From a virus, in IMG/VR virus record IMGVR_UViG_3300009082_000017, positions 96,043-160,042 of that record: a stretch of DNA of 64,000 nt; one strand, written 5' to 3'. A model generated the notes under the pieces. It made no database searches. It was not told where the DNA came from and saw only the letters and a list, made by a program, of their open reading frames with translations. Positions 5,252 through 59,082 of this stretch are shown here, piece after piece; position 1 is the stretch's first letter; each line of letters opens with the position of its first letter. The position numbers and the translations under genes were made by a program.

Positions 5252-5446
5252 ATGATAGATGCGATTATTGCGATTGTAGTAGGATTGTTGCTTTTATATT
5301 TTGGCATATCATCAATAATATTGTTTATAAAAAATGTTAATAAAAATGATGGAATATGGATTATAGCGAGTGCATTAATTTGTTCCATTGGATTATTTTT
5401 ATTTGGTGGTGGAATTTTACAAATAATAAAAATTATTTTACCATGA
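5252..5446 (+). CDS. two-helix membrane protein, single gene between sites 5213 and 5442
   Basis: Two hydrophobic segments; stop in site. Confidence 0.75.
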   Translation: MIDAIIAIVVGLLLLYFGISSIILFIKNVNKNDGIWIIASALICSIGLFLFGGGILQIIKIILP

Positions 5447-5507
5447 AACTAGAATTTCATGGTGTATTACAAATAAGATAATATTAGTATAGTGTAAGGA
5501 GATAAAT

Positions 5508-6542
5508 TTGGGAATAAACGTACTTTCATGTTTTGATGGAATTTCTGCCGGTCAATTGGCATTACAAAGAGCAGGAATTAAAGTAGACAATTATTTTGCA
5601 TCAGAAATTGACAAATATGCAATTCAAATTACACAGAAGAATTTTCCTAATACTATTCAACTAGGAAGTATTAATGATTATAAAGACTGGGATTTGCCTA
5701 AAATTGATTTGGTTATTGGCGGTAGTCCATGTCAAGGCTTTAGCAATGCAGGGAAAGGATTAAATTTTGAAGACCCAAGAAGCAAATTGTTTTTCACATT
5801 TTCTGATATTATCAAATATTATAACCCTAAATATTTTTTGTTAGAAAATGTAAAAATGAAAAAAGAATGGCAAGATGTTATTAGTGAATATATGGGTGTT
5901 GGCCCTATTGAAATTAATTCATCTTTAGTTTCTGCTCAAAATAGAAAACGCTTATACTGGACAAATATTAATTCTGTTGAAGTCCCCTTGGATAAAAATA
6001 TTTATATTGCAGATATTGCCGAAGAAGATGCAGAGCCTATCATATTACATAATTTATATGGTGGTTTTGGAGAATCAAAACCAAGAGTTTTTACAGAAAA
6101 ATCTCCAACAATAAGAACTGCAAGTGGTAGAGGTCATATTCCAAGCGTTGTTCGTAAAGATATTTATTGGAAAGACGTTCAGGAAACTGATGCCAAAGAT
6201 GTTTTTTATTATACTGATAAATCATTTAATTGGATAAATAAGTCAGAAGAACGAAAAGCAAAATTTAAGATTTATGATAAAAATACTGAAGAAAAAATGC
6301 AAATGGTTGAGGCATCACATTATAAATTGTATAGTAATCAACGTTGTTTTGGCATAAGAGATAAAGGTGGAATTAGGTATATTTCAAATATTGAATGTGA
6401 AAGATTACAAACGTTTCCAGATAATTATACGGAAGGCGTATCCAAAACTCAACGATACAAAGCAATTGGTAATTCCTGGACGGTAGATGTAATTGCTCAT
6501 ATTTTTTCATATTTGCCTGAAAACTGGAAAGTCACCACATAA
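5508..6542 (+). CDS. dcm: DNA (cytosine-5)-methyltransferase
   Basis: SCFDGI, GGSPCQ, LENV, QNRKR, ERLQTFP, IGNSW motifs. Confidence 0.95.
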   Translation: MGINVLSCFDGISAGQLALQRAGIKVDNYFASEIDKYAIQITQKNFPNTIQLGSINDYKDWDLPKIDLVIGGSPCQGFSNAGKGLNFEDPRSKLFFTFSDIIKYYNPKYFLLENVKMKKEWQDVISEYMGVGPIEINSSLVSAQNRKRLYWTNINSVEVPLDKNIYIADIAEEDAEPIILHNLYGGFGESKPRVFTEKSPTIRTASGRGHIPSVVRKDIYWKDVQETDAKDVFYYTDKSFNWINKSEERKAKFKIYDKNTEEKMQMVEASHYKLYSNQRCFGIRDKGGIRYISNIECERLQTFPDNYTEGVSKTQRYKAIGNSWTVDVIAHIFSYLPENWKVTT

Positions 6543-6579
6543 AAGTGTCATTTCATTGGAAATTGATATTGATTTACTC

Positions 6580-6608
6580 TTGACAGATTTATAAAACTGT
6601 GTTATAAA
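6580..6608 (+). promoter_or_regulatory. sigma70-type promoter
   Basis: TTGACA-17-TATAAA, extended TG. Confidence 0.8.
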
Positions 6609-6631
6609 TAAAAGAAAAAAGGAGATTTAAA

Positions 6632-7147
6632 ATGGCCTATAGTAATCCTAATAATATTATTACAAAAGGAAAAGAATTGTCTCATTCATCAGAGAATAAA
6701 ATTGAAGCTATTAATGCTCTTGAAAAAGCATTAAGCACATTAAATGAAACAATAAGAAGTGCTTGTGATCTTGGTATTTTCCCAAAAGTGGAAGTTAGGC
6801 AACAGATGTCCTTTTATGAATCTAATCCCGATTCTATTATGGGAATTATTCATTATCTTTCAGCAGATTCCGTATTTTTAGAATATTTAGAAATGTATGA
6901 TAATGCTCAAGGTTTAGTTGGTATGGCACTTCCTCATGGCGAAACCGCAAAGCATAGACTTTCAATATATGAAAGCTCATATAATGAAAGAAAAGAATTT
7001 TTAGAAAAATCTGAATTAGAAGATAAAAAAGATCAATTATTAAAGTTGGAAGATTGGTGGACAAATACAAAAGATACTTTTGAATCCAGAATGGAAAAAA
7101 CAGAAAAAGATATTATTAAAGAGTCTTGTGTAGAAGTTACCCCATGA
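6632..7147 (+). CDS. hypothetical protein, single gene between sites 6538 and 7143
   Basis: AAGGAG RBS; ends VTP* in site. Confidence 0.8.
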   Translation: MAYSNPNNIITKGKELSHSSENKIEAINALEKALSTLNETIRSACDLGIFPKVEVRQQMSFYESNPDSIMGIIHYLSADSVFLEYLEMYDNAQGLVGMALPHGETAKHRLSIYESSYNERKEFLEKSELEDKKDQLLKLEDWWTNTKDTFESRMEKTEKDIIKESCVEVTP

Positions 7148-7193
7148 AAGATTTGTTTCATGGTATAAAAATTAGATAAGAAGGAGATTAAAC

Positions 7194-7367: not shown

Positions 7368-7394
7368 TTATTTGTCACATGAAATCAATATTTT

Positions 7395-8258
7395 ATGGTG
7401 CTAAACACCATAGAAAGGATAAATCTATTGAAAGAATTACAACCGGCAATCAAATGGTCAGGAAGTAAACGTCCTATTGCAAAAGAAATTGTAGAATCAT
7501 TTCCAGATAATATTGAAACATATTATGAACCTTTTTGTGGCGGATGTTCTGTACTGTATTATTTATTGAATAGCAATAAACTTGGTGCAAAACGATATGT
7601 TTGTTCAGATATCAATAATGATTTAATAGATTTGTGGAATACAATTAAATCTAATCCAAGTCAAGTTATTAATAATTATTCGAGAATGTGGAATGAGTTA
7701 CAAGTTTTAAGTATTGCAGATCGCAGACAATATTTCTACGATGTTCGAAGTAGATTCAATAAAGAAAAATCACCTTATGACTTTATGTTTATTATGAGAA
7801 CTACAACCAATGGTATGCCTAGATATAATAAATTAGGAGAATTTAATAATTCTTTTCATATTACAAGAGATGGTATTAATCCAAAAGAATTTACAACTAC
7901 GATTGATAAATGGTCTAGTTTATTAAATAATTATGAAGTAGAATTTGTTTGTCAAGATTATATTAATATTGTTTCAGATAGCGAAGATGTGATTTATTTA
8001 GACCCGCCTTATGCTGGGACAAAAGGAATGTATTATGGAGTAATTGATTATAATAAATTATGGGAATGGGTGAAGATTCAAAAAGGATTTGTCGCACTAA
8101 GTTTTGATGGAAGAACCACAAGCACAGAATATTCTGATTTAGTTCCAAAGGATATTTTTAGTAATCATAAATTGATTTGTTCTGGTAATTCTTCATTCAG
8201 AAGGACTATCGGAAAATCAAGATCAGAGTATGTTTATGAAAGTTTATATACCCAATGA
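7395..8258 (+). CDS. Dam-like (D12 class) DNA adenine methyltransferase
   Basis: KWSGSK, YYEPFCGGCSV, YLDPPY; true start probably TTG near 7428 after AAAGGA. Confidence 0.92.
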   Translation: MVLNTIERINLLKELQPAIKWSGSKRPIAKEIVESFPDNIETYYEPFCGGCSVLYYLLNSNKLGAKRYVCSDINNDLIDLWNTIKSNPSQVINNYSRMWNELQVLSIADRRQYFYDVRSRFNKEKSPYDFMFIMRTTTNGMPRYNKLGEFNNSFHITRDGINPKEFTTTIDKWSSLLNNYEVEFVCQDYINIVSDSEDVIYLDPPYAGTKGMYYGVIDYNKLWEWVKIQKGFVALSFDGRTTSTEYSDLVPKDIFSNHKLICSGNSSFRRTIGKSRSEYVYESLYTQ

Positions 8259-8270
8259 AAGAACTATTTC

Positions 8271-8474
8271 ATGGAGAATAAACATTTGAAAACTAAAAAT
8301 TTGGTATATTATTTATTTGGGGCAAATGATCTAGTTTCTTTATGGAAGTTGTTTCTTGCCACTATCTCAATAAAATATTTTTTGCCTAATAGACGATCCA
8401 AAAAAATGTTAAGAGAAAAGATAAAATATCTTAAAATATTAGAAAACATAAATAAGGAGAATAAAAATGAGTAA
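8271..8474 (+). CDS. hypothetical protein
   Basis: ORF track; first ATG is in the right arm of site 8254, true start may be the TTG just downstream. Confidence 0.5.
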   Translation: MENKHLKTKNLVYYLFGANDLVSLWKLFLATISIKYFLPNRRSKKMLREKIKYLKILENINKENKNE

Positions 8475-8655: not shown

Positions 8656-8694
8656 CCCAATGAAAGGACTCTTTCATGGGAGAAAGGACAAATT

Positions 8695-9125: not shown

Positions 9126-9920
9126 TTGAACAAAAAAATAAAAATTTATAATTTGAAATATTTTTTTATTACCATTTGTTTGTTAATTTTTATATTCTTT
9201 ATTTTTCAAAAACAGTCTAGTGTTGTTGCGGTATTCTCAACTCCTACTTCAATCCCATTCCCAGAAAAGACTCCTATGGTTTTTGATCATTCTGAAATAA
9301 ACAATGATAATTATAAATATAATGGATATTGGGAAGGGAACTATTGGATAAAAGGAGTCCCCTCATATGAAACTCTTATGCTTAGAATGCCAATGGTTGC
9401 CGGTGGTTCGGCAGTTACTTACGATCCTTATTTAATGGAAGTCACTGCAAATAAAGCGGGATTTGATATTGAAAAATATGTTGGAACCGTCGCTGTTTCT
9501 TTTTGGTCAGAAGTGGGGCATGAAGTGTGGATATATCATCCTAATTATGGTTGGGAAGGCCCATTTTTAGTAGTAGATGTGTCTCGACAAATTGATGTTT
9601 ATCGTCAAATTGTATATCAAAATCAAGTTGTTGAATTAGATTTTGAAACAGCAAAAAGATGGGAGATGTGGGAAGTGGTTAATGGAAATAATATTTTGGT
9701 AAATGGCAGGGTTGATGGAGTTATTGTATCAAAAGTTCCACCAGAAAAAGTAAATAGGTATCCTGTTGTACAATTATCAGATTTCTTTTTAGAGAATGTG
9801 AAATATATAACTTCTTATGAAAAAACGCCAGTATATAATCCTCCTAAAAATACGGGGCTACCACTTCCTATCTGGAAAATAGGTGATTATTGGGTAATAT
9901 TCCCAACAGAAAAATATTAA
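9126..9920 (+). CDS. membrane-anchored/secreted protein, possible RlpA-like double-psi barrel
   Basis: N-terminal hydrophobic helix, Pro/Thr linker, G..VWI...GPFLVVD...VELD. Confidence 0.5.
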   Translation: MNKKIKIYNLKYFFITICLLIFIFFIFQKQSSVVAVFSTPTSIPFPEKTPMVFDHSEINNDNYKYNGYWEGNYWIKGVPSYETLMLRMPMVAGGSAVTYDPYLMEVTANKAGFDIEKYVGTVAVSFWSEVGHEVWIYHPNYGWEGPFLVVDVSRQIDVYRQIVYQNQVVELDFETAKRWEMWEVVNGNNILVNGRVDGVIVSKVPPEKVNRYPVVQLSDFFLENVKYITSYEKTPVYNPPKNTGLPLPIWKIGDYWVIFPTEKY

Positions 9921-10868: not shown

Positions 10869-11380
10869 TGCGTTATCTCGTACATTTAAAAAATATTTTG
10901 CTTCATAAATATTATGTTTTTTTTGCTTGTTTGAAATTAAAAGTCCCTTTGTATTTAGCAATTTTTCACGATATTTCAAAATTTAAATTATCTGAATTTA
11001 TTCCATATGCTAAATATTATTATAATAAAGACGGATCTCATGCCGATGTAAAAGACAAACACGGTGAATTAGAATACACTAAAGAAGCAAACAATATTAA
11101 AGTGGCGTGGCTATATCATTCTCATACAAACAGGCATCATTGGAACTATTGGATTACTATTAGGTCTGATGGATTAATTTATCCAAATATAATTCCCGAT
11201 AAATATATAAAAGAAATGGTTGCAGATTGGATAGGTGCATCTAAAGCTTATAATCTAAATATTAAGGTTATTGATTGGTATAATAAGGAAAAAGAAAACT
11301 TAATATTACATCAAGATACTAGAACAAAAATAGAAAAAATATTACAAATATTGGAGTATAATGGAAATAATAGAAACTGA
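10868..11380 (+). CDS. HD-like DUF5662-type protein
   Basis: HK..V, HDISK, AWLYH...NRHHW, EMVADW; ATG 10868 preferred. Confidence 0.7.
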   Translation: MRYLVHLKNILLHKYYVFFACLKLKVPLYLAIFHDISKFKLSEFIPYAKYYYNKDGSHADVKDKHGELEYTKEANNIKVAWLYHSHTNRHHWNYWITIRSDGLIYPNIIPDKYIKEMVADWIGASKAYNLNIKVIDWYNKEKENLILHQDTRTKIEKILQILEYNGNNRN

Positions 11381-11903
11381 AATCCCAGAAGTTGTTATTT
11401 TTAATCCCATTATTTATGGAGATAATAGAGGTTTTTTTGCAGAGATATTTGTTTATAAAGAATTTGAAAATAGATGTGGGAATTATTTATTTGTTCAAGA
11501 AAATTATTCAAAATCTATTAAGAATACTTTACGTGGACTTCATTATCAATTACAAAAAGAGCAAGGCAAATTGGTATCTTGTATTAATGGTGAAATATTT
11601 GATGTGGCTGTGGATATTAGAAAAAATTCGCCCACTTATAAAAAATATGTATCTGTTTTATTATCAGATAAAAACAAAAAAATGGTTTGGATTCCACCTG
11701 GATTTGCTCACGGGTTTTTTACTTTAAGCGATATTGCCGAAATAGAATATCGTTGTACAAATTATTATAGCAAAGAAAATGAAAGAGGTATTAGGTGGGA
11801 TGATCCGAGTGTTGGAATTAATTGGCCTATACAAGATGGAGAATTGCCTATATTGTCTGAAAAAGATAGTAAATTAAATTTTATTAATAGTGAGGAGAAT
11901 TGA
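11361..11903 (+). CDS. rmlC: dTDP-4-dehydrorhamnose 3,5-epimerase
   Basis: DNRGFF, TLRGLHYQ, GKLV, DVAVDIR, PPGFAHGF. Confidence 0.95.
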   Translation: MEIIETEIPEVVIFNPIIYGDNRGFFAEIFVYKEFENRCGNYLFVQENYSKSIKNTLRGLHYQLQKEQGKLVSCINGEIFDVAVDIRKNSPTYKKYVSVLLSDKNKKMVWIPPGFAHGFFTLSDIAEIEYRCTNYYSKENERGIRWDDPSVGINWPIQDGELPILSEKDSKLNFINSEEN

Positions 11904-13039
11904 TGCAAAAAGGTAATACGTTGAAAGTTCCAGTTACTGGGCAAGTTACAGGCGATGAAGAAACTGAAGCAATTATAGAAGTTGCAAAATCAAAGCAATA
12001 TGCTCCTAATAAAAAAGTTGAGCAATTTGAGCATGATTTTGCAAAATTTGTTAAAAAAAGATATGGTTTATTTGTAAATAGTGGATCTTCTGCTAATTTA
12101 TTAGCGACAACTGCTTGGGCGAAATATCATGAAAAAGAAACAAAAGCATTGGAATGTACTCTTCCTGCTTTAATGTTTCCTACTACCTTGAATCCCTATC
12201 TCCAAAATAATTTTACTATAAAATTAATAGACGTAGAAGTTGAAACTCTGCAAGCAAAAAGCCCAGAAAAACATGGTGTGCATACATTAGGGAATTATGC
12301 GGATTTGTCAAATATAGAGGACAGTTGTGACGCCATGCTTCCAGGTCATTACAAGGGAGAGATACAAACCTTTTCTTTCTTCCCCGCACATTTTTTGTGT
12401 ACCGGCGAAGGGGGAATGGTCACTACAGATAATCCTGAATTATATAAGTTGATGCGTTCAATTATGCATTGGGGTAAGGATTGCTGGTGCCCTCTTGGTA
12501 GCGACAATACTTGTGGTAAAAGATTTGAACATCAATTTGGAGAAATGCCTTATGGGTATGATCATAAATATATTTATACCAATATTGGATATAATTTAGC
12601 CAATACTGAAATGGCTGCTGCAATGGGAATTGAACAATTGAAAAAACTTCCTTATTTTCTTGAAACTAGAAAAAATAATTTTAAGAAATTATATGAAGGA
12701 TTGTCTAAATTTTCTGATAGCTTTATTCTTCCAAAAACAGTTTTACCAGATACTCCATGGTTTGCATTTCCTATTACCGTCAAAAGAGAATCAAAAATTT
12801 CAAGACGAGATATGGTAGAATTTCTTAATAATGAAGGTGTTGCTTCAAGACCTATCATGGGTGGAAATTTAAAGAGACAACCTGCATATTTAAATATAAA
12901 ATTTAAGTATGGTGGGATATTAGAAAATTCTGATCTCATCACAGATAATTCATTTTATATTGGTTTATGGCATGGATTGTTCGAAGAACAAATTGAATAT
13001 AGTATTAATACTATTGAAAGATTTATGGAAATGCAATGA
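11900..13039 (+). CDS. rfbH: RfbH/DdhC-like PLP/PMP-dependent NDP-4-keto-6-deoxyhexose 3-dehydrase
   Basis: NSGSSAN, EDSCDA, SFFPAH (His in place of Lys), GEGG, DCWC...NTCGKRF...GYDHKY. Confidence 0.85.
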   Translation: MMQKGNTLKVPVTGQVTGDEETEAIIEVAKSKQYAPNKKVEQFEHDFAKFVKKRYGLFVNSGSSANLLATTAWAKYHEKETKALECTLPALMFPTTLNPYLQNNFTIKLIDVEVETLQAKSPEKHGVHTLGNYADLSNIEDSCDAMLPGHYKGEIQTFSFFPAHFLCTGEGGMVTTDNPELYKLMRSIMHWGKDCWCPLGSDNTCGKRFEHQFGEMPYGYDHKYIYTNIGYNLANTEMAAAMGIEQLKKLPYFLETRKNNFKKLYEGLSKFSDSFILPKTVLPDTPWFAFPITVKRESKISRRDMVEFLNNEGVASRPIMGGNLKRQPAYLNIKFKYGGILENSDLITDNSFYIGLWHGLFEEQIEYSINTIERFMEMQ

Positions 13040-13746
13040 AAATATTAGCATTAGGATACGGAAAGTTAGGACAAGAAATTGTTAAACAATCTGGTTGGGA
13101 TTATATTAGCCGAGAAAAAAATAATTTTGATTTCAACAATATAAATTCTTACAATAAATATCTTTACAATTATGACACAATAATAAATTGTATAGCAAAC
13201 ACATATACTTATTCTGACGACAAACAATCAATGATCGATACTAACTTCAAAGCAGTTGTGAACCTAATAGAATTCTCAAATTTGTATAATAAGAAGTTAA
13301 TCCAAATAGGAACGGATTACATTTATGATGGGTCAGTAGAAAATGCTTCAGAAGAAGATATTCCTGTCCATGCAAGAAATTGGTATTCTTATTCAAAACT
13401 TTTAATAGATGGATATATACAAAGCTTTTGTGAAAATTATTTATTAATAAGAACATCGTTCAAGTCCAATCCATTTCCTTATCCAAAAGCAATCACTACG
13501 CAAAAAGGTAATTTTGATTATACAGATAAAATTGTTGAAAAAATAATTAACTTAATAAACAATAATGCAATCGGTGTTTACAATGTTGGACATAATACAC
13601 CATGGACTATTTACGAAATGGCTTTAGAAACAAATAAAGATGTTGTACCTTGTGATGATATTTTAAATGAATCAATGCCTACAAATATTACAATGAATAT
13701 GGAGAAGTATAATGAGTTTATTAGAAATCTTAATACCGGTTTATAA
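13036..13746 (+). CDS. RmlD-like NDP-sugar reductase (SDR)
   Basis: GYGKLG, TDYIY, YSYSK. Confidence 0.8.
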   Translation: MKILALGYGKLGQEIVKQSGWDYISREKNNFDFNNINSYNKYLYNYDTIINCIANTYTYSDDKQSMIDTNFKAVVNLIEFSNLYNKKLIQIGTDYIYDGSVENASEEDIPVHARNWYSYSKLLIDGYIQSFCENYLLIRTSFKSNPFPYPKAITTQKGNFDYTDKIVEKIINLINNNAIGVYNVGHNTPWTIYEMALETNKDVVPCDDILNESMPTNITMNMEKYNEFIRNLNTGL

Positions 13747-14404
13747 TATGCAAGGTAAGGGACTGGAAATGCTTGCATACAGTTTTAAACAACTTAAGTT
13801 GCAGCGTTTTAAAGATTTTAGCGTTCTTATTTCTGATGATTCAGAAGATGAAACAATTAAAACTTATGTAAGTGGGATCAAAGACCTAGAAATAAAATAT
13901 GTAAAAAATGAAGGGATGCATAGTATTGCTGGCAATATGAATAATGCCATTAAAAATGCAACTGGAGAAATTCTTCAAGTAATGTGTCAAGATGATTATT
14001 TTTACAATAAAGATTCTTTACAAAAAATTGTAGATAATTTTGATAGGGGTAAGGGTTGGATGTGTAGTATGTATATGCATACAAAAGACAGGCTAGGGTT
14101 ATTCAATCAACAAATTCCCAAATGGAATCCTAAGATTTGTTTGGATAATACTTTGGGCACACCTTCTTGTTTGTCATTTTTGAACGATAAAGACGTTCCT
14201 TTATTGGATGAAAATTTAAAATGGTATGTTGATTGTGACCATTATTATCGGTTATTCAAAAAATGGGGCGAACCTAAGATTTTGAAAGAATTAATTTTTG
14301 TTCAGTTATTATGGGAAGGACAAACGACTCAAGGAATTACTCAAGAAATTGTTAATACTGAAGTTGCATATATTAATGATAAGTATGTAGGAGAGTTGGG
14401 TTGA
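13712..14404 (+). CDS. GT2-family glycosyltransferase
   Basis: ILIPVYN, SDDS, QDD, GTPS. Confidence 0.85.
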   Translation: MSLLEILIPVYNMQGKGLEMLAYSFKQLKLQRFKDFSVLISDDSEDETIKTYVSGIKDLEIKYVKNEGMHSIAGNMNNAIKNATGEILQVMCQDDYFYNKDSLQKIVDNFDRGKGWMCSMYMHTKDRLGLFNQQIPKWNPKICLDNTLGTPSCLSFLNDKDVPLLDENLKWYVDCDHYYRLFKKWGEPKILKELIFVQLLWEGQTTQGITQEIVNTEVAYINDKYVGELG

Positions 14405-15054
14405 AAAAATATTTAAAAGATGTTACTCTCCTTGCATATGATACTCGCCCAGATAAAATTGAAGGGACTATTTGGGCACTACAAAAATGTTGTGAGGGAT
14501 TAGATTTTTATGAGGTTAAGTTGTTGACAGATATAATGCCTGATAATTTACCTGAAAATATTAAATTGGAATATGCTCCACACATTAATCATATTAATGA
14601 TTTTAATTTGTATATGTTCTTAGAGTTAGGGAAACACATAGATAGTTCACATTGTTTGTATGTACAGGATCATGGGTTTGTTATTTCGCCTCAGATTTGG
14701 CGTGATGAGTGGTTAGAATACGATTATATTGGGGCTGGATGGAATTGGATGCCTGATGCTTATGTTTGTCATGAAACGGGTGAACATGTTCGACAGGGCA
14801 ATGGGGGATTTTCACTTCGCAGTTCTCAAATTTTAAATTTGCCTAAAGAAAAAGGGTGGTATTTGAAAGAAGAACAAGGCTGGAAAAATGAAGATGGACA
14901 AGTGTGTGTTTATTGGCGCAAAGATATGTTAAAAAATGGAATAAAATATGCCCCTATTGAAGTTGCATCTGTTTTTTCTTATGAAAAAGATACCCCAGAG
15001 AATATGAATATTAAAGAATTTTTCGGATATCATAGAAATATGCCTAGGAGATAA
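14401..15054 (+). CDS. DUF5672-like GT-A fold protein
   Basis: YVQDHG, YDYIGA.W, GNGGFSLRS, ED, FGYH. Confidence 0.75.
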   Translation: MKKYLKDVTLLAYDTRPDKIEGTIWALQKCCEGLDFYEVKLLTDIMPDNLPENIKLEYAPHINHINDFNLYMFLELGKHIDSSHCLYVQDHGFVISPQIWRDEWLEYDYIGAGWNWMPDAYVCHETGEHVRQGNGGFSLRSSQILNLPKEKGWYLKEEQGWKNEDGQVCVYWRKDMLKNGIKYAPIEVASVFSYEKDTPENMNIKEFFGYHRNMPRR

Positions 15055-15056
15055 TA

Positions 15057-15713
15057 TTGAATAAACTTTTTATAATTAGTCGATATAATGAAGATTATTC
15101 TTGGATAAAAGAATATACTAAAAATTATCTTATTTATAATAAAGGTGATCTAATTTTAGATGATTCTCACGTTATCAATACCGAAAATATTGGTGGAAAT
15201 CAACGAGACATATCCAAATTTGCTTTTGAAAATTATAATAATTTACCAGATATTATGATATTTATTCAGTCGTTTGTTTGGGATCATTGTAAAAAAGATA
15301 TTTTTGACAACCTAATCCAAAATACAACATTTACCCCTTTGGAATATTATGGAAGTATTCCGGCAAATGGATGGGAACAAAGAGATGAATTTGGAGGGTT
15401 CCTTGAGACGAATAATAATTGGTACATTTCTGCACATAATTCAACTTATAATTTAACTTGCAGATATGAATCTTTTGATCAGTTTATGAATAAATATTTT
15501 GAAGACTACCAACATTTAGATTTTATTCGTTTTGCTCCAGGTTCACAATATATCATTACACCAAAAGAAATTTTACAATATCCAAAAACATTTTGGAAAT
15601 GCTTGATGGAAGAATTGACAACAAAAAATTCAACTGAAGCGCACATCGTAGAAAGAAGTTTATATTATATTCTTAATGGTGATTATAATTTGAGAAAGGA
15701 TTTTTATGGATAA
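15057..15713 (+). CDS. DUF3431-like protein (glycan-locus associated)
   Basis: ISRYNED.SW, IYNK, NIG, NY..LPD, AHIVER. Confidence 0.7.
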   Translation: MNKLFIISRYNEDYSWIKEYTKNYLIYNKGDLILDDSHVINTENIGGNQRDISKFAFENYNNLPDIMIFIQSFVWDHCKKDIFDNLIQNTTFTPLEYYGSIPANGWEQRDEFGGFLETNNNWYISAHNSTYNLTCRYESFDQFMNKYFEDYQHLDFIRFAPGSQYIITPKEILQYPKTFWKCLMEELTTKNSTEAHIVERSLYYILNGDYNLRKDFYG

Positions 15714-16641
15714 TTTTTCACAATACAAACCAGGTTTACATAAATTGGTTCATCATTTAGATCATTTAAAAAAATTACAAAACAGAGAACCATCCTCCCC
15801 TTTACATTTATCTGTTTTCCCTACAAATTTTTGCCAATTAGAATGTCCTTATTGTGGATTTAGAAAAGTAAAAAGAAATAACACAGAATTATCTTTTGAA
15901 GATTTTAGCAAAGCAATTGATGTTTTAGTAAAGTATGGGTTGAAAGCTATGGAACAATCAGGTGGTGGTGATCCTCTTTTATGGTCTCATTTTGATAAGG
16001 CAACAGAATATGCATATAACAAAGGTTTGAAATTATCACTAGTCACTAATGGATTGGAATTAGGTCACATGTCATCAAAAACTTTATCTTTATTTTCTTG
16101 GATACGAGTTTCAATACAATCAGAAGCATATGCAAGAAAAATAGATTTGAGTAAAATTCCAAATAATATAAAAAGAAGTATGTCATTTATTGTTCACGAT
16201 GAAAAATCTTTTAATGAATTGGATAAAATACATGAATTTGCAAAAGAAAAAAATATTCTTATTAGGATTGCACCAAATAGACCTTGCGACAAAAGTTGGG
16301 CAAATAAAGTAAAAGATAAAGCAGAAAATTTAGGACACCCATTTTTGTTTTTTGAAAAATCTAATGAAACTCCTAACGGATGCTACATGGCTTGGATAAG
16401 AGCAGCATTAGATTGGGAAGGTAATTTTCTTCCTTGCCCATCAATTGAATTGACACCAGAATGTGCTGGATATATTCCTGATAATTTTAAATTATGCAAA
16501 GTGTCGGAATTGGAAGAATGGATTTTAAATAACCCTGTACACGATTTAGGACATCGTTGTAAATTCTGCAATTGTGGTAAAGACACAAATGATTTTGTGT
16601 ATGGGATGCTTCAAGATATAGAGGATGTGGATTTTGTATAA
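15706..16641 (+). CDS. radical SAM protein with SPASM/Twitch-like C-terminus
   Basis: CQLECPYC, SGGGDP, LVTNG, C-terminal Cys cluster. Confidence 0.85.
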   Translation: MDNFSQYKPGLHKLVHHLDHLKKLQNREPSSPLHLSVFPTNFCQLECPYCGFRKVKRNNTELSFEDFSKAIDVLVKYGLKAMEQSGGGDPLLWSHFDKATEYAYNKGLKLSLVTNGLELGHMSSKTLSLFSWIRVSIQSEAYARKIDLSKIPNNIKRSMSFIVHDEKSFNELDKIHEFAKEKNILIRIAPNRPCDKSWANKVKDKAENLGHPFLFFEKSNETPNGCYMAWIRAALDWEGNFLPCPSIELTPECAGYIPDNFKLCKVSELEEWILNNPVHDLGHRCKFCNCGKDTNDFVYGMLQDIEDVDFV

Positions 16642-17272
16642 TATTGATGGGAATTTTTTTGATAAAGATTATTTTGAAAATGGGAAACAAACCAATAAAA
16701 GTTTCTATGAAAATTATCATTGGATGCCTCAAAGAAGTTTTAGAGAAGCGTTAGCTTTTATTGACTGTTTGCAACTCAATGAAAATTCTTATGTTCTAGA
16801 AATTGGCTGTGCGAAAGGTTTTCTTATTCGTGCATTAAGAGAATTAGAAATTAAAGTAGATGGTGCAGATATCAGCAATTATGCCTTGTCGTTTGCACCG
16901 GAAGGATGTTGGAATTGCTCGAATGATTCTTCTTGGGATAACCATGCTAATTTTGGATACACAAATATAATTATCAAAGATATGTTGGAACACTTGAATA
17001 AAGAACAATTGGGAATATCTTTAAATAATTTTTCAAAAGTTTCAAATAAAATGATATGTGTTGTTCCAATTGGAAGCAATGGTAAATATCGAATCCCAGA
17101 ATATGAATGTGATCAGAGCCACGTCATACGAGAAAACGAGTCATTCTGGTATTGTTTTTTTGAAATGAATGGTTGGAAAGTTATAAATCATTTTCCACAT
17201 TTAAAAGGGATAAAAGATAATTGGACTCATTATCCTGATGGCAACCATGTTTTTGTATTGGAGTATAAATAA
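16625..17272 (+). CDS. class I SAM-dependent methyltransferase
   Basis: VLEIGCAKG, GADIS, DMLEH. Confidence 0.85.
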   Translation: MWILYNIDGNFFDKDYFENGKQTNKSFYENYHWMPQRSFREALAFIDCLQLNENSYVLEIGCAKGFLIRALRELEIKVDGADISNYALSFAPEGCWNCSNDSSWDNHANFGYTNIIIKDMLEHLNKEQLGISLNNFSKVSNKMICVVPIGSNGKYRIPEYECDQSHVIRENESFWYCFFEMNGWKVINHFPHLKGIKDNWTHYPDGNHVFVLEYK

Positions 17273-18126
17273 TGTTGAGTATTGATTTAACCGGTAACTG
17301 CGGAGACCAAATCCTACGCTACTGTATTTGCAGAAGTGTAGCTGAAAAAAACAATTATAGGTATGGGATAAATTCAATTACTAGTAATGATTATTATAAT
17401 GGAAAAGGACAATTATATTTTTTTAAGGGTATTGATTATGGTGAACCTAACAATACACCCTTTAGTCAATTGCCCCCAAACACAGACAATGTTTGGGAAG
17501 AAAAAAGAGAGTTTTATCAAGGATATAATTTTCATCCTTTCCAACCAGATATTTTTGATGTTACACCTAATACTAAATTGATAGTTTATTGTGGACAAGA
17601 TGCATTCTATCTGGATAAAGAAAAAGTTTCGAAATGGTTAGAGATTAAAGATGAATATGCGGAAGAATCTAAAAGGTTATTAGAAGGATCAGAAATTGAA
17701 TTAAATGAAAATACTTGTGTGATTAATTGTCGTGGTGGAGAATATAAATCAGTTCCATCTTTATTTTTAACACATAATTATTGGGACAAAGCAATTGCTT
17801 TTATGAAACAAAAAAATCCTAACTTTAAATTTATTGTTGTTACGGAAGATCCAGAATTTTATAAAACATTTTTTGATGTACCTGTTTATCATTTTAATAT
17901 TCATACTGATTACTATATTCTTAATAATGCAAAAAATATTATCGCTTCAAATTCTGGGTTTGGAATATTTCCGATTTGGACTAATAAAAATAATCCATAT
18001 GTTATCGCCCCTTATTTATGGGCGAATCATAACTACGGTGAGAATGAGGAGTGGGCAAATTCGAATATGAGAAGTTGGGATTGTTTTAATTTTATGGATA
18101 GGGATGGAGAGTTGTATGACAAATGA
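17272..18126 (+). CDS. GT11 (alpha-1,2-fucosyltransferase-like) glycosyltransferase
   Basis: GNCGDQ, INCRGGEY, VVTED, IASNSGF. Confidence 0.8.
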   Translation: MLSIDLTGNCGDQILRYCICRSVAEKNNYRYGINSITSNDYYNGKGQLYFFKGIDYGEPNNTPFSQLPPNTDNVWEEKREFYQGYNFHPFQPDIFDVTPNTKLIVYCGQDAFYLDKEKVSKWLEIKDEYAEESKRLLEGSEIELNENTCVINCRGGEYKSVPSLFLTHNYWDKAIAFMKQKNPNFKFIVVTEDPEFYKTFFDVPVYHFNIHTDYYILNNAKNIIASNSGFGIFPIWTNKNNPYVIAPYLWANHNYGENEEWANSNMRSWDCFNFMDRDGELYDK

Positions 18127-18144
18127 GTTGCATAAGGGCGGAGT

Positions 18145-18864
18145 ATGTTTATTTATAAAACGACAAACTTAGTTAATGGTAAAATTTATATAGGGCAATC
18201 TCAGCACGACATTAGTTTTGATTATTTAGGTTCTGGAGTATTGTTTACAAAAGCTATAAAAAAATATGGAAAGAAAAATTTTAAAAGAGAAATTTTAGAA
18301 GACGGTATTGTTGATATAAAAACATTAAATGATAGAGAAATTTATTGGATAGAATATTTTCATGCGACGGATATAAATATAGGATATAATATTTCTATAG
18401 GAGGATTCGGTACAATAGATCCTACTGGAAGAGTTGCAAAAAGAATATCTGAAGGAAGAAAAGGGGTTAGGTTATCTGAAGAGTCTAAAAAAATATTATC
18501 AGATGCACATCTTGGAATAAGACAAACAGAAGAAAGTAAAGTGAAAATATCAAAAACATGCAAAGAGAATATAGAAAAATTTGGTCATCCTCAAGCGGGG
18601 ATACCTAAACCTGAAGAATTAAAAGAAATTATGCGGAGAAATTCTCAAGGCAAAATTCGTGGAGGGGCATCCAAATATATAGGTGTTCAAAAAGGAAGAA
18701 GAAAAAAGTGGAAATCCCAAATAGTTTATAAGAAAAAGATTTATTATTTGGGAGAATTTGACGATGAAAAAGATGCGGCAAGAGCATATAATAATAAAGC
18801 ATTAGAGCTTTATGGGACAACCGCTAGATTAAATATTATAGAAGAGGATGAGAATAATGAATAA
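18145..18864 (+). CDS. GIY-YIG homing endonuclease with NUMOD3 repeats and AP2 domain
   Basis: FIYKTTNLVNGKIYIGQ, YLGSG, GYN; SEESK repeats; YLGEF..E..AARAYN. Confidence 0.9.
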   Translation: MFIYKTTNLVNGKIYIGQSQHDISFDYLGSGVLFTKAIKKYGKKNFKREILEDGIVDIKTLNDREIYWIEYFHATDINIGYNISIGGFGTIDPTGRVAKRISEGRKGVRLSEESKKILSDAHLGIRQTEESKVKISKTCKENIEKFGHPQAGIPKPEELKEIMRRNSQGKIRGGASKYIGVQKGRRKKWKSQIVYKKKIYYLGEFDDEKDAARAYNNKALELYGTTARLNIIEEDENNE

Positions 18865-20214: not shown

Positions 20215-20218
20215 TATT

Positions 20219-21037: not shown

Positions 21038-21050
21038 TTTGTTTTAACCC

Positions 21051-21079
21051 TTGACAGATTTTAGTTTATGTGTTATAGT
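21051..21079 (+). promoter_or_regulatory. sigma70-type promoter
   Basis: TTGACA-17-TATAGT, extended TG. Confidence 0.8.
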
Positions 21080-21109
21080 AATAGAAATATATTGGGTTAG
21101 GAGGATAAG

Positions 21110-23349: not shown

Positions 23350-23360
23350 GAGAGAATAAA

Positions 23361-50579: not shown

Positions 50580-51314
50580 TTGTCTTTAATAGATTTGACT
50601 GGAAAAAGATTTGGAATGTTGGTAGTTCTTCATAGGACTGAAAGACCAGAAGGGGTAAAAACTGGAACATTTTGGTTGTGTCAATGTGATTGTAAAAGTG
50701 ATCCGGTGGCCGTAAGAGCAGGAAATATAAAAAAACAACATTCTTGTGGGTGTTATAGAAATTTAATGGCTTCTACGCGACAAAAGAAATATAATGAATA
50801 TAATTTGTCTGGAGAATACGGAATAGGTTATACCCTAAAAGGTGAAGAATTTTATTTTGATTTAGAAGATTATGATAAAATCAAAGACTATTGTTGGTAT
50901 ATGCATCAAGATAATTATTTATCAACAAATATTCCAGGATATTATCATCCAAGATTAGAAGTATTAATGCACAGAATGATTCTCGGATTAGAAGATCCAT
51001 CTATTCAAGTTGATCATATTGATAGACACAGAAATGATAATAGAAAATTTAATTTAAGAATCGCTTCTCCTAAACAAAATTCTAGAAACAGAACTAGACC
51101 AAGTAATAATTCTAGCGGAGTAATGGGAGTTTGTTGGTCTGATAGAAGTGGAAAATATAGAGCATATATAACATATAATCATAGATGGATTACTTTAGGA
51201 GAATTTGGTGATATGGAAGATGCAATAAAAGCTAGATTAAAAGCTGAGTTGGAATATTTTGGATTAGAATTTTCTTCACAACGTCATCTATTTAAAGAAT
51301 ACGGAATAATTTAG
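50580..51314 (+). CDS. HNH-AP2 homing endonuclease
   Basis: DLTGKRFG, WLCQCDC, SCGC, HR...VDH...N...N, AP2 C-terminus. Confidence 0.9.
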   Translation: MSLIDLTGKRFGMLVVLHRTERPEGVKTGTFWLCQCDCKSDPVAVRAGNIKKQHSCGCYRNLMASTRQKKYNEYNLSGEYGIGYTLKGEEFYFDLEDYDKIKDYCWYMHQDNYLSTNIPGYYHPRLEVLMHRMILGLEDPSIQVDHIDRHRNDNRKFNLRIASPKQNSRNRTRPSNNSSGVMGVCWSDRSGKYRAYITYNHRWITLGEFGDMEDAIKARLKAELEYFGLEFSSQRHLFKEYGII

Positions 51315-54600: not shown

Positions 54601-55023
54601 TGATGTTTGTGAAAGCTATGGTAATGAATATGAGGCACTAGAAAAAGAAATCATAAAATTAGGAATACCATTGCCTAATAAAACGACCATTTCATTAGAG
54701 GAGTAAAAATGAGAGAATATACAGCAGTCAAAGTAGATAAATTAGTAGAGGCAAAAGTTACTTGCAATAAATGTGGCATGATTTATGATAATGAAACATT
54801 TGATCCAGAAATGCCACAAGGATATGAAGAATGGCAATGGGACACCATTCATGCTTTTAAAGTAGATTTTGGGTATGGCTCTTCCCATGATATGGAAAGA
54901 TGGAAATTTGATTTGTGTGAAAATTGCATTGAAGAATTAGTGGATTCATTTAAAATTAAAGCACAAAAACTTGGTACCGATCCATTTGGTGAAGAATTAT
55001 CTATTCAAGAAAATAATCAATAA
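51695..55023 (+). CDS. tract of about 14 small hypothetical proteins
   Basis: ORFs at 51695, 51916, 52156, 52431, 52623, 52864, 53132, 53509, 53736, ~53947, ~54134, 54506, 54709, most with RBS. Confidence 0.7.
53083..53111 (+). promoter_or_regulatory. sigma70-type promoter
   Basis: TTGACA-17-TATAAA, extended TG. Confidence 0.8.
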
Positions 55024-55048
55024 AACATATATTCCATGGAGGTAAATA

Positions 55049-55822
55049 TTGAGATTAAACGATGATATAGTTATTAAACAATGTGATTGTATGGATATAA
55101 TGCAAAGAATTCCAGACAATTATGTTGATATGATTTTATGCGATTTACCTTTTGAAAAAACTGGTGCAAAATGGGATATTATTATACCTTTAGATAAATT
55201 ATGGGTTCAATATAATAGAATTATAAAAAAAGATGGTGCAATAGTTTTGTTCGGAGTAGAACCATTCACATCAATGCTAATAATGAGCAATTTAAATAAT
55301 TATAGATATAAATGGACATGGGGAAAAGAACAAGGTGGTAATTTTCAATTAGCAAAACTTCAGCCATTAAATGTACTAGAGGATATTTGTGTGTTCTCTC
55401 TTTCAAAAACTGCTAATGGCGCAAAAGAAAATATGAGATATTTCCCAATTATGACGAAAAGAGATAAGCCAACAAAATCAGGTGGCAATCCTTCTGTAAG
55501 TGATATTTTGCATAAAAATAATATGGTGGCATTACATAAGATATATGAAGAAAGTTATCCAAAAAATATTTTGCGTTTTAATAAAGATCATAGTTCGAAA
55601 AGATTGCATCCGACTCAAAAACCGGTTGAATTATTAGAATATCTGATAAAAACATATACAAAAGAAAAAGAAGTTATTTTAGATAATACTATGGGTGTGG
55701 CATCAACAGGAGTTGCTTGTATAAACACAAATCGCAAGTTTATTGGGTATGAATTAGATGAAAAATATTTTGAAATTGGTAAAAACCGACTTTTAGAATG
55801 TTTAGTAGAAAAATCGAAATAG
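55049..55822 (+). CDS. N4/N6 DNA methyltransferase (beta class)
   Basis: DMILCDLPF, HPTQKP, LDNTMGVAST (glycine motif slightly deviant), FIGYE. Confidence 0.9.
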   Translation: MRLNDDIVIKQCDCMDIMQRIPDNYVDMILCDLPFEKTGAKWDIIIPLDKLWVQYNRIIKKDGAIVLFGVEPFTSMLIMSNLNNYRYKWTWGKEQGGNFQLAKLQPLNVLEDICVFSLSKTANGAKENMRYFPIMTKRDKPTKSGGNPSVSDILHKNNMVALHKIYEESYPKNILRFNKDHSSKRLHPTQKPVELLEYLIKTYTKEKEVILDNTMGVASTGVACINTNRKFIGYELDEKYFEIGKNRLLECLVEKSK

Positions 55823-55904
55823 AAACATATATCAAAAATAATAACTATTTTTAAGATTTACCCCATGAAATGCAAATTTCATTGATTTAATCGAAAGGAG
55901 GATA

Positions 55905-58294
55905 ATGACCACACCAAAAGAAGCATTAGAATTCTCCAAAGAAAAAGCAACAACCGAATTATTACAATTTATAGTTTCTGCTTCCAAAGGATATGAATAC
56001 GTTAATAAACAAAAACTAAGAGAAATTATAGATTGGATAACTTTGGCATCTTGTTTAGAAGGCCAAGTTATGATAAGCGAAAACCTACCTAAAAAAGAAT
56101 AGAGGCATACTATGGCACGAGGGATTCACAGCAATACCCACATTACCAAATTGTTTTACATCCTTAGAAGAAAAGGAATATCTGATGGATTAAAACATTA
56201 TTGTGTACTTGAATTACGTCACTGGCAGGAAATAACCACAGATGAAGCTTATAAATATTTAGGATTAGATTATAATAACCTAGAAGAACAATTTAATAAT
56301 ATTACAAAATCAAAGGAGAAATAATAAAAATGACAGACGAAGGAAAGAAATTACAGCAAGAACAAATCCAAAGAAGTTATGATTTATTGAAAGAGGAAGG
56401 CGTTGTAACGAGTAAAGATTCTGCGTTATATTGGATTTTTGAAATTGCACAAAATTATGATACTGCTGAAACAATTGGAGAACATCGCGCGGTAATTGAT
56501 GAGCTTGCAGCATATGCATTACTTGGGAAAGAATGTGTTGAATAAAACTAATTTTACCAGAAACCTTGACAAATTTACATTTCTGTGGTAAACTTATTTT
56601 ATAATTATAGGAGCGCACATTGGGCAATATATGTTTTTATTGCAATAAAGAAATTACTGAAAAAGACACATGTTGGTTTGAACCAATAGATGGGTCTTAC
56701 CCCACAAAATATGGTAATATCCCTTTTCATAAAGAAAAATGTTATCGAACTATAAAAGATATTTTCCAATATTTAGAAGAAAATAAAGAAAGAGTTTTTG
56801 ATTTTATTGCAAATGGATCTAAACAAATTGTAGAAAATAAGGCAAAACAAATAAAAGAAACTATTGAAGAACAACCTAAAACAAAAGAAAATAAAATCAA
56901 AAAAACTAAAAAAATTAAAACTAAAAAAACTAAAAGGAAATAGTAAAATGGGAAAATACGATGTAAAAATAACCAACCAATTAAAAGAAGGTGATAAAGT
57001 AAAAATTGATATTGAAAAATATCGTTGGCAAAGAGAACAAGGATCTCTCACTGATACTTTTTGGCAATTTTTGGAAGACAATAAAGAAACTATTTTTACA
57101 CTTTTCGCAAGAAATAAATATGGAATTATGTGGGGAATAGAAGAGGATACAAGATGGTCTTTATATGGTGATTTTTTGATTAAGATTGACTAATGGAGAT
57201 TAATATGGCATACTGGGTGTATTGGACAATATTTTCTGTATTAGCTTTTTGTGTGGCTGGGATTATTATTAAGTTTTTGTGGGATATTTTACAAGAACTT
57301 AAATTCTTAAATAAAAATCCCAAAGAAGGCAATTGTCCTCATGGGTATAGTGATTGGGATGCGTGTCAAGTTTGTAGTTCTGAAAAGAAATACTTTTAAT
57401 TACAATAAGAAATTAATTTCATGGAATGAGTGAGGATAAGATGTGACATTTTCTAATTCTGGAGCCATATGTTCTGCAAGTTATATAAGTTGGGGCGATA
57501 CTTGGCTTAATTACGATCATACTATTGTTTCTAGAAAAGAATAAAAAGAAAAACATTTCTGTGAATATTGCGGATCATATAGTGAGTCAGTTTATAGAGA
57601 AGGAACTTGTGGCGCATGTGGCGCTCCATTTGGGAAATCACAACATAAGACAAAGACTTATCCTGATCGTTCTTGTGGATGGGTATATGCACCATAAAAC
57701 GATAATTTCATGGGAATAAAATAGAAAGGATAAATAAAAATGCATGTAAATCTTATTTATAAAGAAAACGATTTTCAAACATTAGCAGAATTATTCTTGA
57801 AACATAGAACTGTTAATGAATTCATTGAAGAAGCTATACATAGTCCAATTAGATCATTTGATGGGAGTAATAGAATTGATATGAATACTGCTATTACTGT
57901 GTGGCAGTCGTTTAAGGCGTTGGAGAATGTTATGGATAAGGTTGAAGCGTAATGAGAGATTATCCTTTTTATGTTTATTTGCACACAAATGGCGAATTAA
58001 TTACCAAGAACCCTTGGGTTGTAGATTCTATGGGCGCTAGTGAATATTTTGATAGCAGTTTTGTTGTAAAATATTGGCTTGTTAAAAACGACGAAGAACT
58101 TGAAGGCGTAAAAAAACAAGCTGTTAAATTAATAAAATGAATATTTCACTAGGAGAAAAATGATTAAATTATTAAAACAATTATTTTGTGCTTTAATTTA
58201 TGCTCACGATTTTGAAAAATATTCTGGTAGTGAATATGCAAAATGTGAAAGATGCGGATATATCACATCAGTATATTATAGAGAAAATGTTTAA
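55905..58294 (+). CDS. tract of small hypothetical proteins
   Basis: ORFs at 55905, 56112, 56330, 56620, ~56948, 57193, 57740, 57952, 58160. Confidence 0.65.
56566..56594 (+). promoter_or_regulatory. sigma70-type promoter
   Basis: TTGACA-17-TAAACT, extended TG. Confidence 0.8.
57443..57697 (+). pseudogene. zinc-ribbon gene with premature stop, between sites 57404 and 57693
   Basis: GTG 57443; in-frame TAA 57542-57544; continues CEYCG...CGACGAP...YAP* with stop in the site arm. Confidence 0.6.
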
Positions 58295-58322
58295 TAAAAT
58301 AGATAATTCATGGAGATAGAAT

Positions 58323-59000
58323 TTGTATAAAATATACAATCAAGATAATACAAAAGTCTGTAGTTTACCAAAAGTAGATTTAGTATATGCAGATATGATC
58401 TATGAAAATGAAGACCTTTCATGGATTTATGATTTTTTCGATTTGCTTAAACCTAATGGAATTTTTATCGTTCAAACAGATTTTCATACAAATTATTTAG
58501 TGAGAGATGCCCTTGAGAATATACGTCAAGCAACATTTGTAAACCATTTGGTTCAAAAGAATGAATGGGGAAACCACCCAAAAAATAAATTTCATCAATG
58601 CTATGACGACATTATAGTTTTCTGCAATGGTAAAGATTGGAAATTTTATCCAGAAAGAATTCAAGTAGACAAGGTTACAAAAAATAAAGGATTAAATCCT
58701 TCAGGTAGACAAACCAAACAAGCAACAGCATGGATAGACGATATTTGTCTAACTACAACATCAAAAGAAAGAATCAAAAAAGAAGATGGGCATTTAATTA
58801 GATGGCAGAAGCCCTTAAGATTATTTGATAGGATTGTTGCGCCTTTTACTGACGAAAAAGATTTAATATTTGATCCGTTTATGGGTAGTGGTAGTTTGGG
58901 CGAATGGTCAATCAAAAATAATAGAAATTATATTGGTATAGAATACGATGAGGTTGTTTTCGGATTAGCGAAACAAAGATTAGATAAGCTTACCCAATGA
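58323..59000 (+). CDS. N4/N6 DNA methyltransferase (beta class)
   Basis: DLVYADMIY (motif IV variant), WQKP, DPFMGSGS, YIGIE. Confidence 0.88.
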   Translation: MYKIYNQDNTKVCSLPKVDLVYADMIYENEDLSWIYDFFDLLKPNGIFIVQTDFHTNYLVRDALENIRQATFVNHLVQKNEWGNHPKNKFHQCYDDIIVFCNGKDWKFYPERIQVDKVTKNKGLNPSGRQTKQATAWIDDICLTTTSKERIKKEDGHLIRWQKPLRLFDRIVAPFTDEKDLIFDPFMGSGSLGEWSIKNNRNYIGIEYDEVVFGLAKQRLDKLTQ

Positions 59001-59082
59001 AAATCACTTTCATGCGAACATCAAATTCTCGTAAACTATACGATTAACACGAATTACAAAATTACAAAGAAGGGAGGTTCCC

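Follow-up and report, generated by a model that had tools for sequence, protein, structure and literature searches.

Palindromic sites with private centres as probable borders of exchangeable slots that carry DNA methyltransferase genes in a phage genome

T4-type phages carry promoter-early stem-loop (PeSL) cassettes (Arbiol et al. 2010, PMC2839356; Comeau et al. 2014, PMC4122927), in which blocks of ~100 bp combine a sigma-70-like promoter with a G/C-rich terminator hairpin; a further feature of PeSLs is the excised mini-circle that carries one open reading frame and one chimeric motif. Phage integrons and attC arrays are treated by Qi et al. (2023, PMC9892861), where attC is defined by R''-L''...L'-R' boxes with a GTTRRRY core, and the Xer target dif is given, in a passage of PMC2958812, as a specific site at the replication terminus with 11-bp arms and a 6-bp spacer. 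Here we analyze the last 64 kb (positions 96,043 to 160,042, hereafter the window of 64,000 bases) of the 160,042-base virus record IMGVR_UViG_3300009082_000017 (G000), which is rated 100% complete, and describe a family of small palindromic sites at its gene boundaries. We propose that the DNA methyltransferase (MTase) genes of this phage are probably cargo in small slots that these palindromes bound throughout the genome, and that exchange takes place at the sites.

The sites resemble PeSLs in that tens of motifs, each placed after a stop codon and ahead of the ribosome-binding site that follows, occur in hyperplastic regions of small unknown genes, and in that insertions, deletions and replacements between close relatives end at the motifs. 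However, the motif described here measures 22-28 bp and is an A/T-rich palindrome whose arms are fixed and whose 6-bp centre is unique and conserved; promoters and T-runs are no more frequent at it than in the background, and it resides in an unrelated phage with a DnaE-type polymerase in which turnover is far heavier, with 19 of 35 slots lacking homology between two relatives. The system works like PeSL shuffling but is not a PeSL, as the promoter is missing. Phage integron and attC arrays offer a similar combination of a single open reading frame (ORF) with a palindrome, MTase cargo and an anti-restriction rationale, whereas the sites studied here differ in length, lack the attC boxes and the extrahelical design, and accompany an Xer-like recombinase rather than IntI. 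The Xer/dif system shares inverted arms of ~11 bp, a 6-bp spacer and an Xer-like recombinase in the same genome; it differs from the 93 gene-boundary sites found here, which each have their own centre and are only candidate targets of binding and cleavage by a recombinase. A limited literature search returned no description of such bar-coded palindromes in a phage, which does not show that none is in print.

The site has the form CCATGAAA-N6-TTTCATGG and was scored on its 16 arm letters, the extended form being (CC)CCATGAAA-N6-TTTCATGG(GG) with a length of 22-28 bp. This site family is genuine and not a product of chance: the window contains 21 perfect ATGAAA-N6-TTTCAT cores (0.64 expected), and the whole genome contains 93 sites scoring at least 13/16 compared with 0-4 in shuffles (~1 expected). 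Block shuffles gave 0.7 sites of exactly 13/16, of which 23 were observed, and 9.8 of exactly 12/16, of which 19 were observed. Each arm has eight strong and two to three weak positions and reaches weakly to ~10-11 bases (CC before, GG or GA after), with the 6-base centre between the arms. In most cases the site abuts the upstream stop codon, overlapping it or following it within 6 bases, and the next start codon is found 15-35 bases past the site behind a GGAG-type ribosome-binding site. The folding energy of strong or perfect sites is -9.5 to -10.8 kcal/mol; that of the degenerate sites flanking MTase genes (6537, 55018, 58292 and 58995) is no better than in shuffles. The variable arm pairs show no covariation (CG 37, CT 26, AG 25 and AT 4, and at the second pair GC 57, AC 22, GT 14 and AT 0). 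No sigma-70-like early promoter was found within the site motif, promoter-like sites numbering 82 and 66 compared with 71.1 and 58.6 in shuffles, and TTGACA follows few sites. Terminator and promoter predictions placed the sites no higher than the shuffled background, with no T-runs after sites and a single terminator-like call on the minus strand, and an Rfam search of the window matched nothing but a tRNA and a group I intron, with no family at the sites. At genome positions 55400-63700, which are not part of the window, a recurring TAGAACA / TATAACAGAA motif stands on one or both flanks of the sites and may be a promoter of another class.

Although the arms are common to all sites, each site has its own 6-base centre, and all centres are distinct both in G000 (93 of 93) and in the relative G001 (71 of 71). 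Centre collisions, that is duplicate, reverse-complementary or self-palindromic centres, are absent from G000 (7.1 expected, P 0.0006) and from G001 (4.9 expected, P 0.004).

Relatives were found by scanning IMG/VR for the perfect site. G001 is a 143-kb contig (143,090 bases) with many sites that is rated 78% complete, and three further contigs (G002-G004) may be pieces of a second relative; our comparison took in 63,782 bases of G001 and 27,889 bases of G002. At a threshold of 13, G000 and G001 have 32 centres in common compared with 3.9 in shuffles (maximum 11), and at a threshold of 12 they have 39 (among 63 G000 and 80 G001 sites), which are collinear in four segments; ~4 additional pairs differ by one or two letters or a one-base shift. 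With 39 exact and ~4 near matches, the centres are ~98% conserved per base compared with 88-93% for the common cassettes and ~80% for the replication genes. Identity anchored on the 32 common sites is ~1.0 in the core, 0.5-0.8 at the outer arm letters and ~0.45-0.5 for ~30 bases downstream, and is random (0.28) from 15 bases upstream and from ~50 bases downstream. Among the 35 intervals between consecutive common sites, tblastx revealed no similarity in 19 and partial similarity in 16, and none was mostly homologous. Homology between the two genomes is lost no more than a few bases from a site or in the short leader behind it, the conserved block sometimes extending through this leader as far as the ribosome-binding site. 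The motifs are concentrated in variable regions, and indels and replacements between the relatives end at them. G002 has 5 of its 28 centres in common with G000 and likewise 5 of 28 with G001. Insertions specific to G001 carry their own new sites and, therefore, sites also come and go with cargo. These alignments show that replaceable units end at the sites and that MTases belong to what is replaced. Arm identity judged by eye is uninformative, the arms being the same in ~4 of 10 pairs whose upstream flank is homologous and in ~10 of 21 in which it is not.

Beyond these relatives, an 81-kb IMG/VR contig (G005; L032, L255) has eight perfect cores and is more distant; one of its cores has the centre GAGGGA of window site 3313, and its genes seem to lie on the opposite strand. 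IMG/VR scans with the radical-SAM gene and with the gene at 9126-9920 yielded no further relative. With the Dam and C5 proteins as queries, 84 loci were obtained (Dam up to 59% identity, C5 up to 70% best-segment identity), none of which has more than one site, and a metagenome scan anchored on the centre of site 7142 gave chance matches only, with no two-site locus among the matches listed. The site is absent from 19 loci of distant relatives identified via the gene at 59672-60226, and no other repeated palindrome was found in the six distant loci examined (L002, L003, L011, L013 and L014, and L055 from the Dam scan).

The window encodes four DNA MTases, in agreement between Pfam and a preliminary description of this DNA, and a search of the whole genome with three MTase families adds a fifth; all five are above the curated Pfam cut-off. 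The genes, their flanking sites and the other units needed below are listed here in window coordinates unless the genome is named (site coordinates in the preliminary description are one base higher).

5441-5462: site upstream of the C5 MTase, CCATGAAA-CTAGAA-TTTCATGG, 16/16, folds at -10.8 kcal/mol
5508-6542, + strand: C5 cytosine DNA MTase, 344 aa, single-gene unit (PF00145, E 3.7e-48, 165.1 bits; TIGR00675 dcm)
6537-6558: site downstream of the C5 MTase, degenerate, 13/16, centre GTGTCA, no hairpin fold, left arm holding the MTase stop TAA
6632-7147, + strand: 171-aa ORF between the C5 and Dam slots, single-gene unit
7142-7163: perfect site, centre GATTTG, identical in G001 bases 3-24
7377-7398: site upstream of Dam, 14/16, centre TCAATA, same centre at G001 base 484
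7395-8258, + strand: Dam-family N6-adenine MTase, DPPY at residue 203 (PF02086, E 4e-37, 128.8 bits; TIGR00571)
8253-8274: site downstream of Dam, 15/16, centre GAACTA, left arm holding the Dam stop TGA
34806-35112, + strand: slot between centres CTGCCA and CAGATA, here with a 72-codon ORF (34871-35089)
55018-55039: site upstream of the third MTase, degenerate, 13/16, centre CATATA, no fold, right arm merging into a GGAGG ribosome-binding site
55049-55822, + strand: third MTase, N6/N4 beta-class, motif IV DLPF, motif I region MGVAS (PF01555, E 1.7e-23, 84.2 bits)
55863-55884: site downstream of the third MTase, 15/16, centre TGCAAA, 40 bases past the stop, same centre at G001 56130
58292-58313: doubtful site upstream of the fourth MTase, 12/16, no G001 counterpart
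58323-59000, + strand: fourth MTase, N6/N4, DMIY in the motif IV column, motif I FMGSG (PF01555, E 3.6e-25, 89.7 bits)
58995-59015: site downstream of the fourth MTase, 14/16, 5-base centre, left arm holding the MTase stop TGA
Genome 86797-87582, outside the window: fifth MTase (PF01555, 102.5 bits)

The left arm of site 5441-5462 contains the stop codon of the ORF at 5252-5446, and the candidate starts for Dam are ATG 7395 inside the site arm or a TTG near 7428 behind a GAAAGGA ribosome-binding site. The centre at 58995-59015 is one base shorter than that of the G001 site at 58973. For the 171-aa ORF, Pfam and PHROGs gave no match and an Atlas search no usable match. The remaining methyltransferase-like genes of the window are an FkbM-type gene and PHROG-only matches in a sugar cluster. 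Like known orphan phage MTases, those listed are C5, Dam-type and N6/N4 enzymes, with no nuclease partner detected in the window; unlike them, a single genome has five, all in separate slots, and close relatives have different sets. The canonical motifs of the beta class are (D/N/S)PP(Y/F/W) for motif IV and FxGxG for motif I; in place of DPPY, the N6/N4 enzymes have DLPY, DLPF or DMIY. The deviant motifs reported earlier for the two beta-class enzymes of the window (DLPF/GVAS and DMIY) are present, although DLPF, which aligns with DPPY of CcrM, is only a Y-to-F variant of DLPY, the norm of its clade (4 of 7 aligned enzymes).

Each MTase of the window had been described as lying between two sites. 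Seven of the eight flanking sites score 13-16 and uphold this, whereas the eighth, at 58292-58313, scores 12/16, is absent in G001 and is doubtful, because with 19 sites of its class observed and 9.8 produced by chance it is about as likely to be accidental as real. It is also correct that three of the MTases have their stop codon in the downstream arm, the exception being the gene at 55049-55822; this feature is not special to MTases because 25 of 82 sites overall hold the upstream stop codon. When the fifth MTase is counted together with the other four, 4 of 5 MTases are single-gene units at a threshold of 13 compared with 26 of 176 genes in site-rich regions (hypergeometric P 0.0017), and 5 of 5 are at a threshold of 12 with centres of 5-7 bases (P 0.0003), where the borders of the site-rich regions were drawn after the site distribution had been seen and the ORF calls are crude. 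In these regions 66 of the 176 gene junctions bear a site, and among the 19 genes of at least 200 aa there are five single-gene units, four of which are MTases. ORF calls were mechanical and, in the relatives, made on the + strand only. In the compared parts of G001 (four MTases) and G002 (one), all five MTases have a site at the 3' end and four have sites at both ends.

Comparison of the same slots in the relatives shows that MTases are gained, lost, moved and swapped between sites while the centres persist in order. The Dam slot reads [TCAATA] Dam [GAACTA] in the window and [TCAATA], an unrelated 63-codon ORF, [GAACTA] in G001; the alignment of the two covers only the sites and a few flanking bases, and at the downstream site 28 bases are in common with G001 at base 700, between flanks that are unrelated on both sides. 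Conversely, between CTGCCA and CAGATA, where the window has its 72-codon ORF, G001 encodes a 251-aa N6/N4 MTase (33753-34508). The latter is the closest relative (57% identity) of the third MTase of the window, which occupies another slot, and nucleotide similarity between the two extends from just past one site to just short of the next, with the middle of the gene replaced. Around this middle (window 55344-55604, G001 34049-34287) the N- and C-terminal parts have 70-77% nucleotide identity, and the differing stretch is as would be expected of a swapped target-recognition region. The syntenic G001 counterpart of the third MTase is 46% identical to it and is nearest (58%) to a G002 MTase located upstream of the G002 recombinase gene, a place where G000 and G001 have none. 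G001 also encodes a C5 MTase at a different location that is 34% identical to the C5 enzyme of the window. For each N6/N4 MTase, the best match is found in another genome and in a slot that is not syntenic. The sole fixed ortholog is that of the fourth MTase, which is 89-90% identical in G001, where its unit additionally holds an HNH_3 gene and a small ORF and the upstream site is absent.

The view of the preliminary description that the MTases are interchangeable is supported: the Dam and CTGCCA/CAGATA slots each show an MTase in one phage and an unrelated short ORF in the other, with breaks at the sites, and across the relatives most MTases are neither fixed in position nor exchanged with breakpoints outside the sites. 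The suggestion that they form a special kit did not hold, since 19 of 35 slots, whatever their content, lack homology between the two phages; as cargo, MTases do not differ from other genes of this phage.

Replacement would occur when relatives infect the same cell and recombine at their conserved site blocks, and its engine would be short-homology recombination of the PeSL type carried out by the phage's own recombination genes, which include those for AAA_24/Sak4-like, RecJ-like and ExoV/Dda-like proteins. We favor this engine because of the precedent, these genes, the conserved block that runs through the leader and a cassette found on opposite sides of the centre CATCTA in the two genomes, which would be forbidden under strict spacer matching, and we consider it slightly more likely than an Xer-like recombinase. 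Several points weigh against our reading of the MTases as exchanged cargo or against this engine. The cassette just mentioned lies after CATCTA in G000 and before it in G001, and crossovers are, therefore, not confined to one point; a common block of 22-28 bp is short for homologous recombination, which also leaves unexplained why centres are conserved at ~98% per base and cassettes at 88-93%. The enrichment of MTases in single-gene units vanishes at a threshold of at least 14/16 (1 of 5, not significant), and four of the eight flanking sites are degenerate and non-folding. The MTase slots are covered by two relatives only, one of them in part (63,782 of the 143,090 bases of G001), and the C5 and fifth MTase slots fall outside the G001 contig. 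Finally, no RNA run was listed as containing this sequence, and in the single public run with this DNA, which is stored as contigs and may be the source sample, we found no variant and no credible joint.

The candidate enzyme for a site-specific engine is the following.

29605-30555, + strand: Xer-like tyrosine recombinase, 316 aa (PF00589; best NCBIfam match XerA NF040815, 125.5 bits, E 2.6e-36)

Acting as a dimer on the two arms, this enzyme could exchange strands across the 6-bp centre such that only the same site in two co-infecting genomes recombines and slots are swapped with gene order kept, as in recombinase-mediated cassette exchange; we regard this as possible and rather doubtful. 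The site has the shape of an Xer core, with inverted arms of ~10-11 bp and a 6-bp spacer, and its arm positions, which vary without pairing covariation, fit protein reading of half-sites better than a hairpin. The recombinase gene is at the same place in G000, G001 (76% identical) and G002 (49%), and a further tyrosine recombinase is encoded in both G000 (minus strand, genome 15981-16529, not in the window) and G001 (78282-78824). Collision-free centres (0 vs 7.1 and 0 vs 4.9) that are conserved between genomes, and are better conserved than all their surroundings (~98% per base), also speak for such an enzyme. However, strict spacer matching cannot shift a gene between slots, whereas related MTases occupy four different slots and one cassette (B) has different centres on both sides in G000 and G001. 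The recombinase is below every curated cut-off (XerA 125.5 vs 220; XerC 77.4 and XerD 66.5 bits), may just serve lysogeny, and has no site beside its gene, the nearest being ~650 bases away on either side; in addition, collision-free centres would likewise arise if recombination were of the ordinary kind and deletions, inversions and perfect palindromes were selected against. Distant relatives without sites have no tyrosine recombinase or a distant one, a correlation confounded by relatedness and incomplete contigs. Heterospecific lox and FRT sites, as engineered for recombinase-mediated cassette exchange, have common arms and a spacer that decides pairing; the swapping of cargo with order kept is alike in this phage, whereas control of pairing by the centre is putative. 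A natural version of such exchange, in which ~ninety dif-shaped sites with private 6-bp centres allow slot-by-slot reassortment at high frequency without deletions or loss of order, is a prospect that we entertain only tentatively.

Under an alternative that we judge unlikely, the sites are only expression punctuation with no role in exchange, either an operator for a phage regulator or a hairpin in the RNA that acts in processing, stability or translational coupling, and MTases would seem boxed in only as a result of the high density of sites among clustered small accessory genes. Sites that abut stops, precede ribosome-binding sites by 15-35 bases and, when strong, fold at -9.5 to -10.8 kcal/mol are compatible with punctuation, a primary regulatory role would account for site maintenance, and with 66 of 176 junctions carrying a site some double flanking is due to chance. 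Yet neither a shared regulator nor a hairpin explains why each site has its own centre and why these centres persist between phages; pairing covariation, an excess of terminators or promoters and an Rfam match at the sites are all missing; in one slot after another, homology between the genomes ends at the sites; and MTases are double-flanked more often than junction density predicts. It is highly improbable that the phage carries an integron or attC array (CALIN) with the MTases as integron cassettes, even though an ORF is followed closely by a palindromic site that often contains its stop, a tyrosine recombinase is present and phage attC arrays with MTase cargo are reported by Qi et al. (PMC9892861). 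The consensus has no GTTRRRY/RYYYAAC boxes, the site is a simple palindrome of 22-28 bp, the centres are not linked to the upstream gene, unlike in attC, and the recombinase scores 40.8 bits against the cut-off of 265 of the integron-integrase model TIGR02249 and 19.2 against 435 of NF011946. The integron or attC reading is contradicted on the defining site features. We give equally little credence to REP/MITE-type mobile repeats spread by a transposase, with MTases merely lying between insertions: many copies are intergenic and three TnpB/OrfB_IS605-like genes are present, but a Y1 (TnpA/RAYT, HUH) transposase (PF01797) was found in none of five records, no two copies in a genome have the same centre (93 of 93 and 71 of 71 distinct), contrary to copy-and-paste spread, and the same sites occur in the same order in relatives.

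With respect to function, the MTases would methylate phage DNA and thereby blunt host restriction, and a changeable set would be useful as hosts change; family membership and established knowledge of solitary phage MTases point to this anti-restriction role. Pfam and PHROGs searches of the window revealed no restriction-enzyme domain, the only nuclease domains being HNH and GIY-YIG homing types and TnpB. The earlier statement that no cognate restriction enzyme is evident holds insofar as profiles detected none in the window, and is weakened by HNH_3 neighbors and by the fact that profiles often miss such enzymes. HNH_3 genes adjoin two of the MTases: one is downstream of the fifth MTase, and another lies immediately before the fourth MTase's ortholog in G001 and overlaps it. 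Given their families and the absence of a detected nuclease domain, the MTases may be orphans. The HNH_3 family of ~180 aa recurs beside MTases at genome positions 82258-82791 and 87888-88421 and at G001 57750-58301. Just after a site, a 73-aa ORF (window 33702-33923) matches the T7 gp5.9 RecBCD-inhibitor family (PF25708, E 4.8e-14), a further counter-defence gene. We suggest that at least part of the cargo traffic serves escape from host restriction.

Mosaicism of accessory regions is well known in phages, whereas a clean means of swapping single genes is documented in few groups. In this phage the boundaries are explicit, countable and bar-coded and, therefore, exchange can be read directly from the sequence: two phages have 39 ordered boundary marks in common, yet more than half of the intervals are unrelated, and few cargo genes, the MTases among them, can be assigned clearly to a family. 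Should the Xer-like recombinase be the driver, a tyrosine recombinase would be put to a new use, and the sites would form a natural set in which each excludes recombination with the others; if it is not the engine, PeSL-type shuffling would also occur in an unrelated lineage of phages whose motif is far smaller.

The genome has a GC content of 0.32, and the terminal sequence of the record overlaps its own start. A megablast search of an annotated phage collection found no close relative, and the DnaE-type polymerase has at most 35% identity to those of annotated phages. Nearly all genes in the window are on the + strand. They encode a replication and recombination set composed of the DnaE-type polymerase, a primase, a DnaB-like helicase and RecJ-like, ExoV/Dda-like and AAA_24/Sak4-like proteins, as well as a split ribonucleotide reductase, the Xer-like tyrosine recombinase, many HNH and GIY-YIG homing endonucleases and two TnpB-like proteins. 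The TnpB/OrfB_IS605-like genes of G000 are located at window 1357-2556 and 26036-27211 and at genome 69265-70575, and G002 has one elsewhere. A tRNA gene (window 36190-36263, Rfam, 70.8 bits) stands at the edge of the replication module, which is 80% identical between G000 and G002 apart from homing-endonuclease genes (window 50580-51314, 41488-42048 and 61148-61879, compared with L001) that differ between the two in number and place. The ribonucleotide reductase large-subunit gene is interrupted by a group I intron at window 63171-63455 (Rfam RF00028, 81.5 bits).

62435-63256 and 63463-end: ORFs for the ribonucleotide reductase large-subunit pieces, separated by the group I intron

A 13-kb sugar and glycosyltransferase cluster (window 11361-24473) is almost free of sites and encodes a dTDP-sugar epimerase, a DegT aminotransferase, an RmlD-like protein, ~8 glycosyltransferases, an FkbM methyltransferase and a radical SAM protein; it is broken up by two GIY-YIG/NUMOD homing endonuclease genes and could serve glycosylation of DNA or of a surface structure. 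In 8.8 kb of an unrelated low-GC IMG/VR contig (L030) we identified four to five copies of another palindrome, of the TTAATGT-N6-ACATTAA type, and bar-coded or repeated palindromes may be present in further viral lineages.

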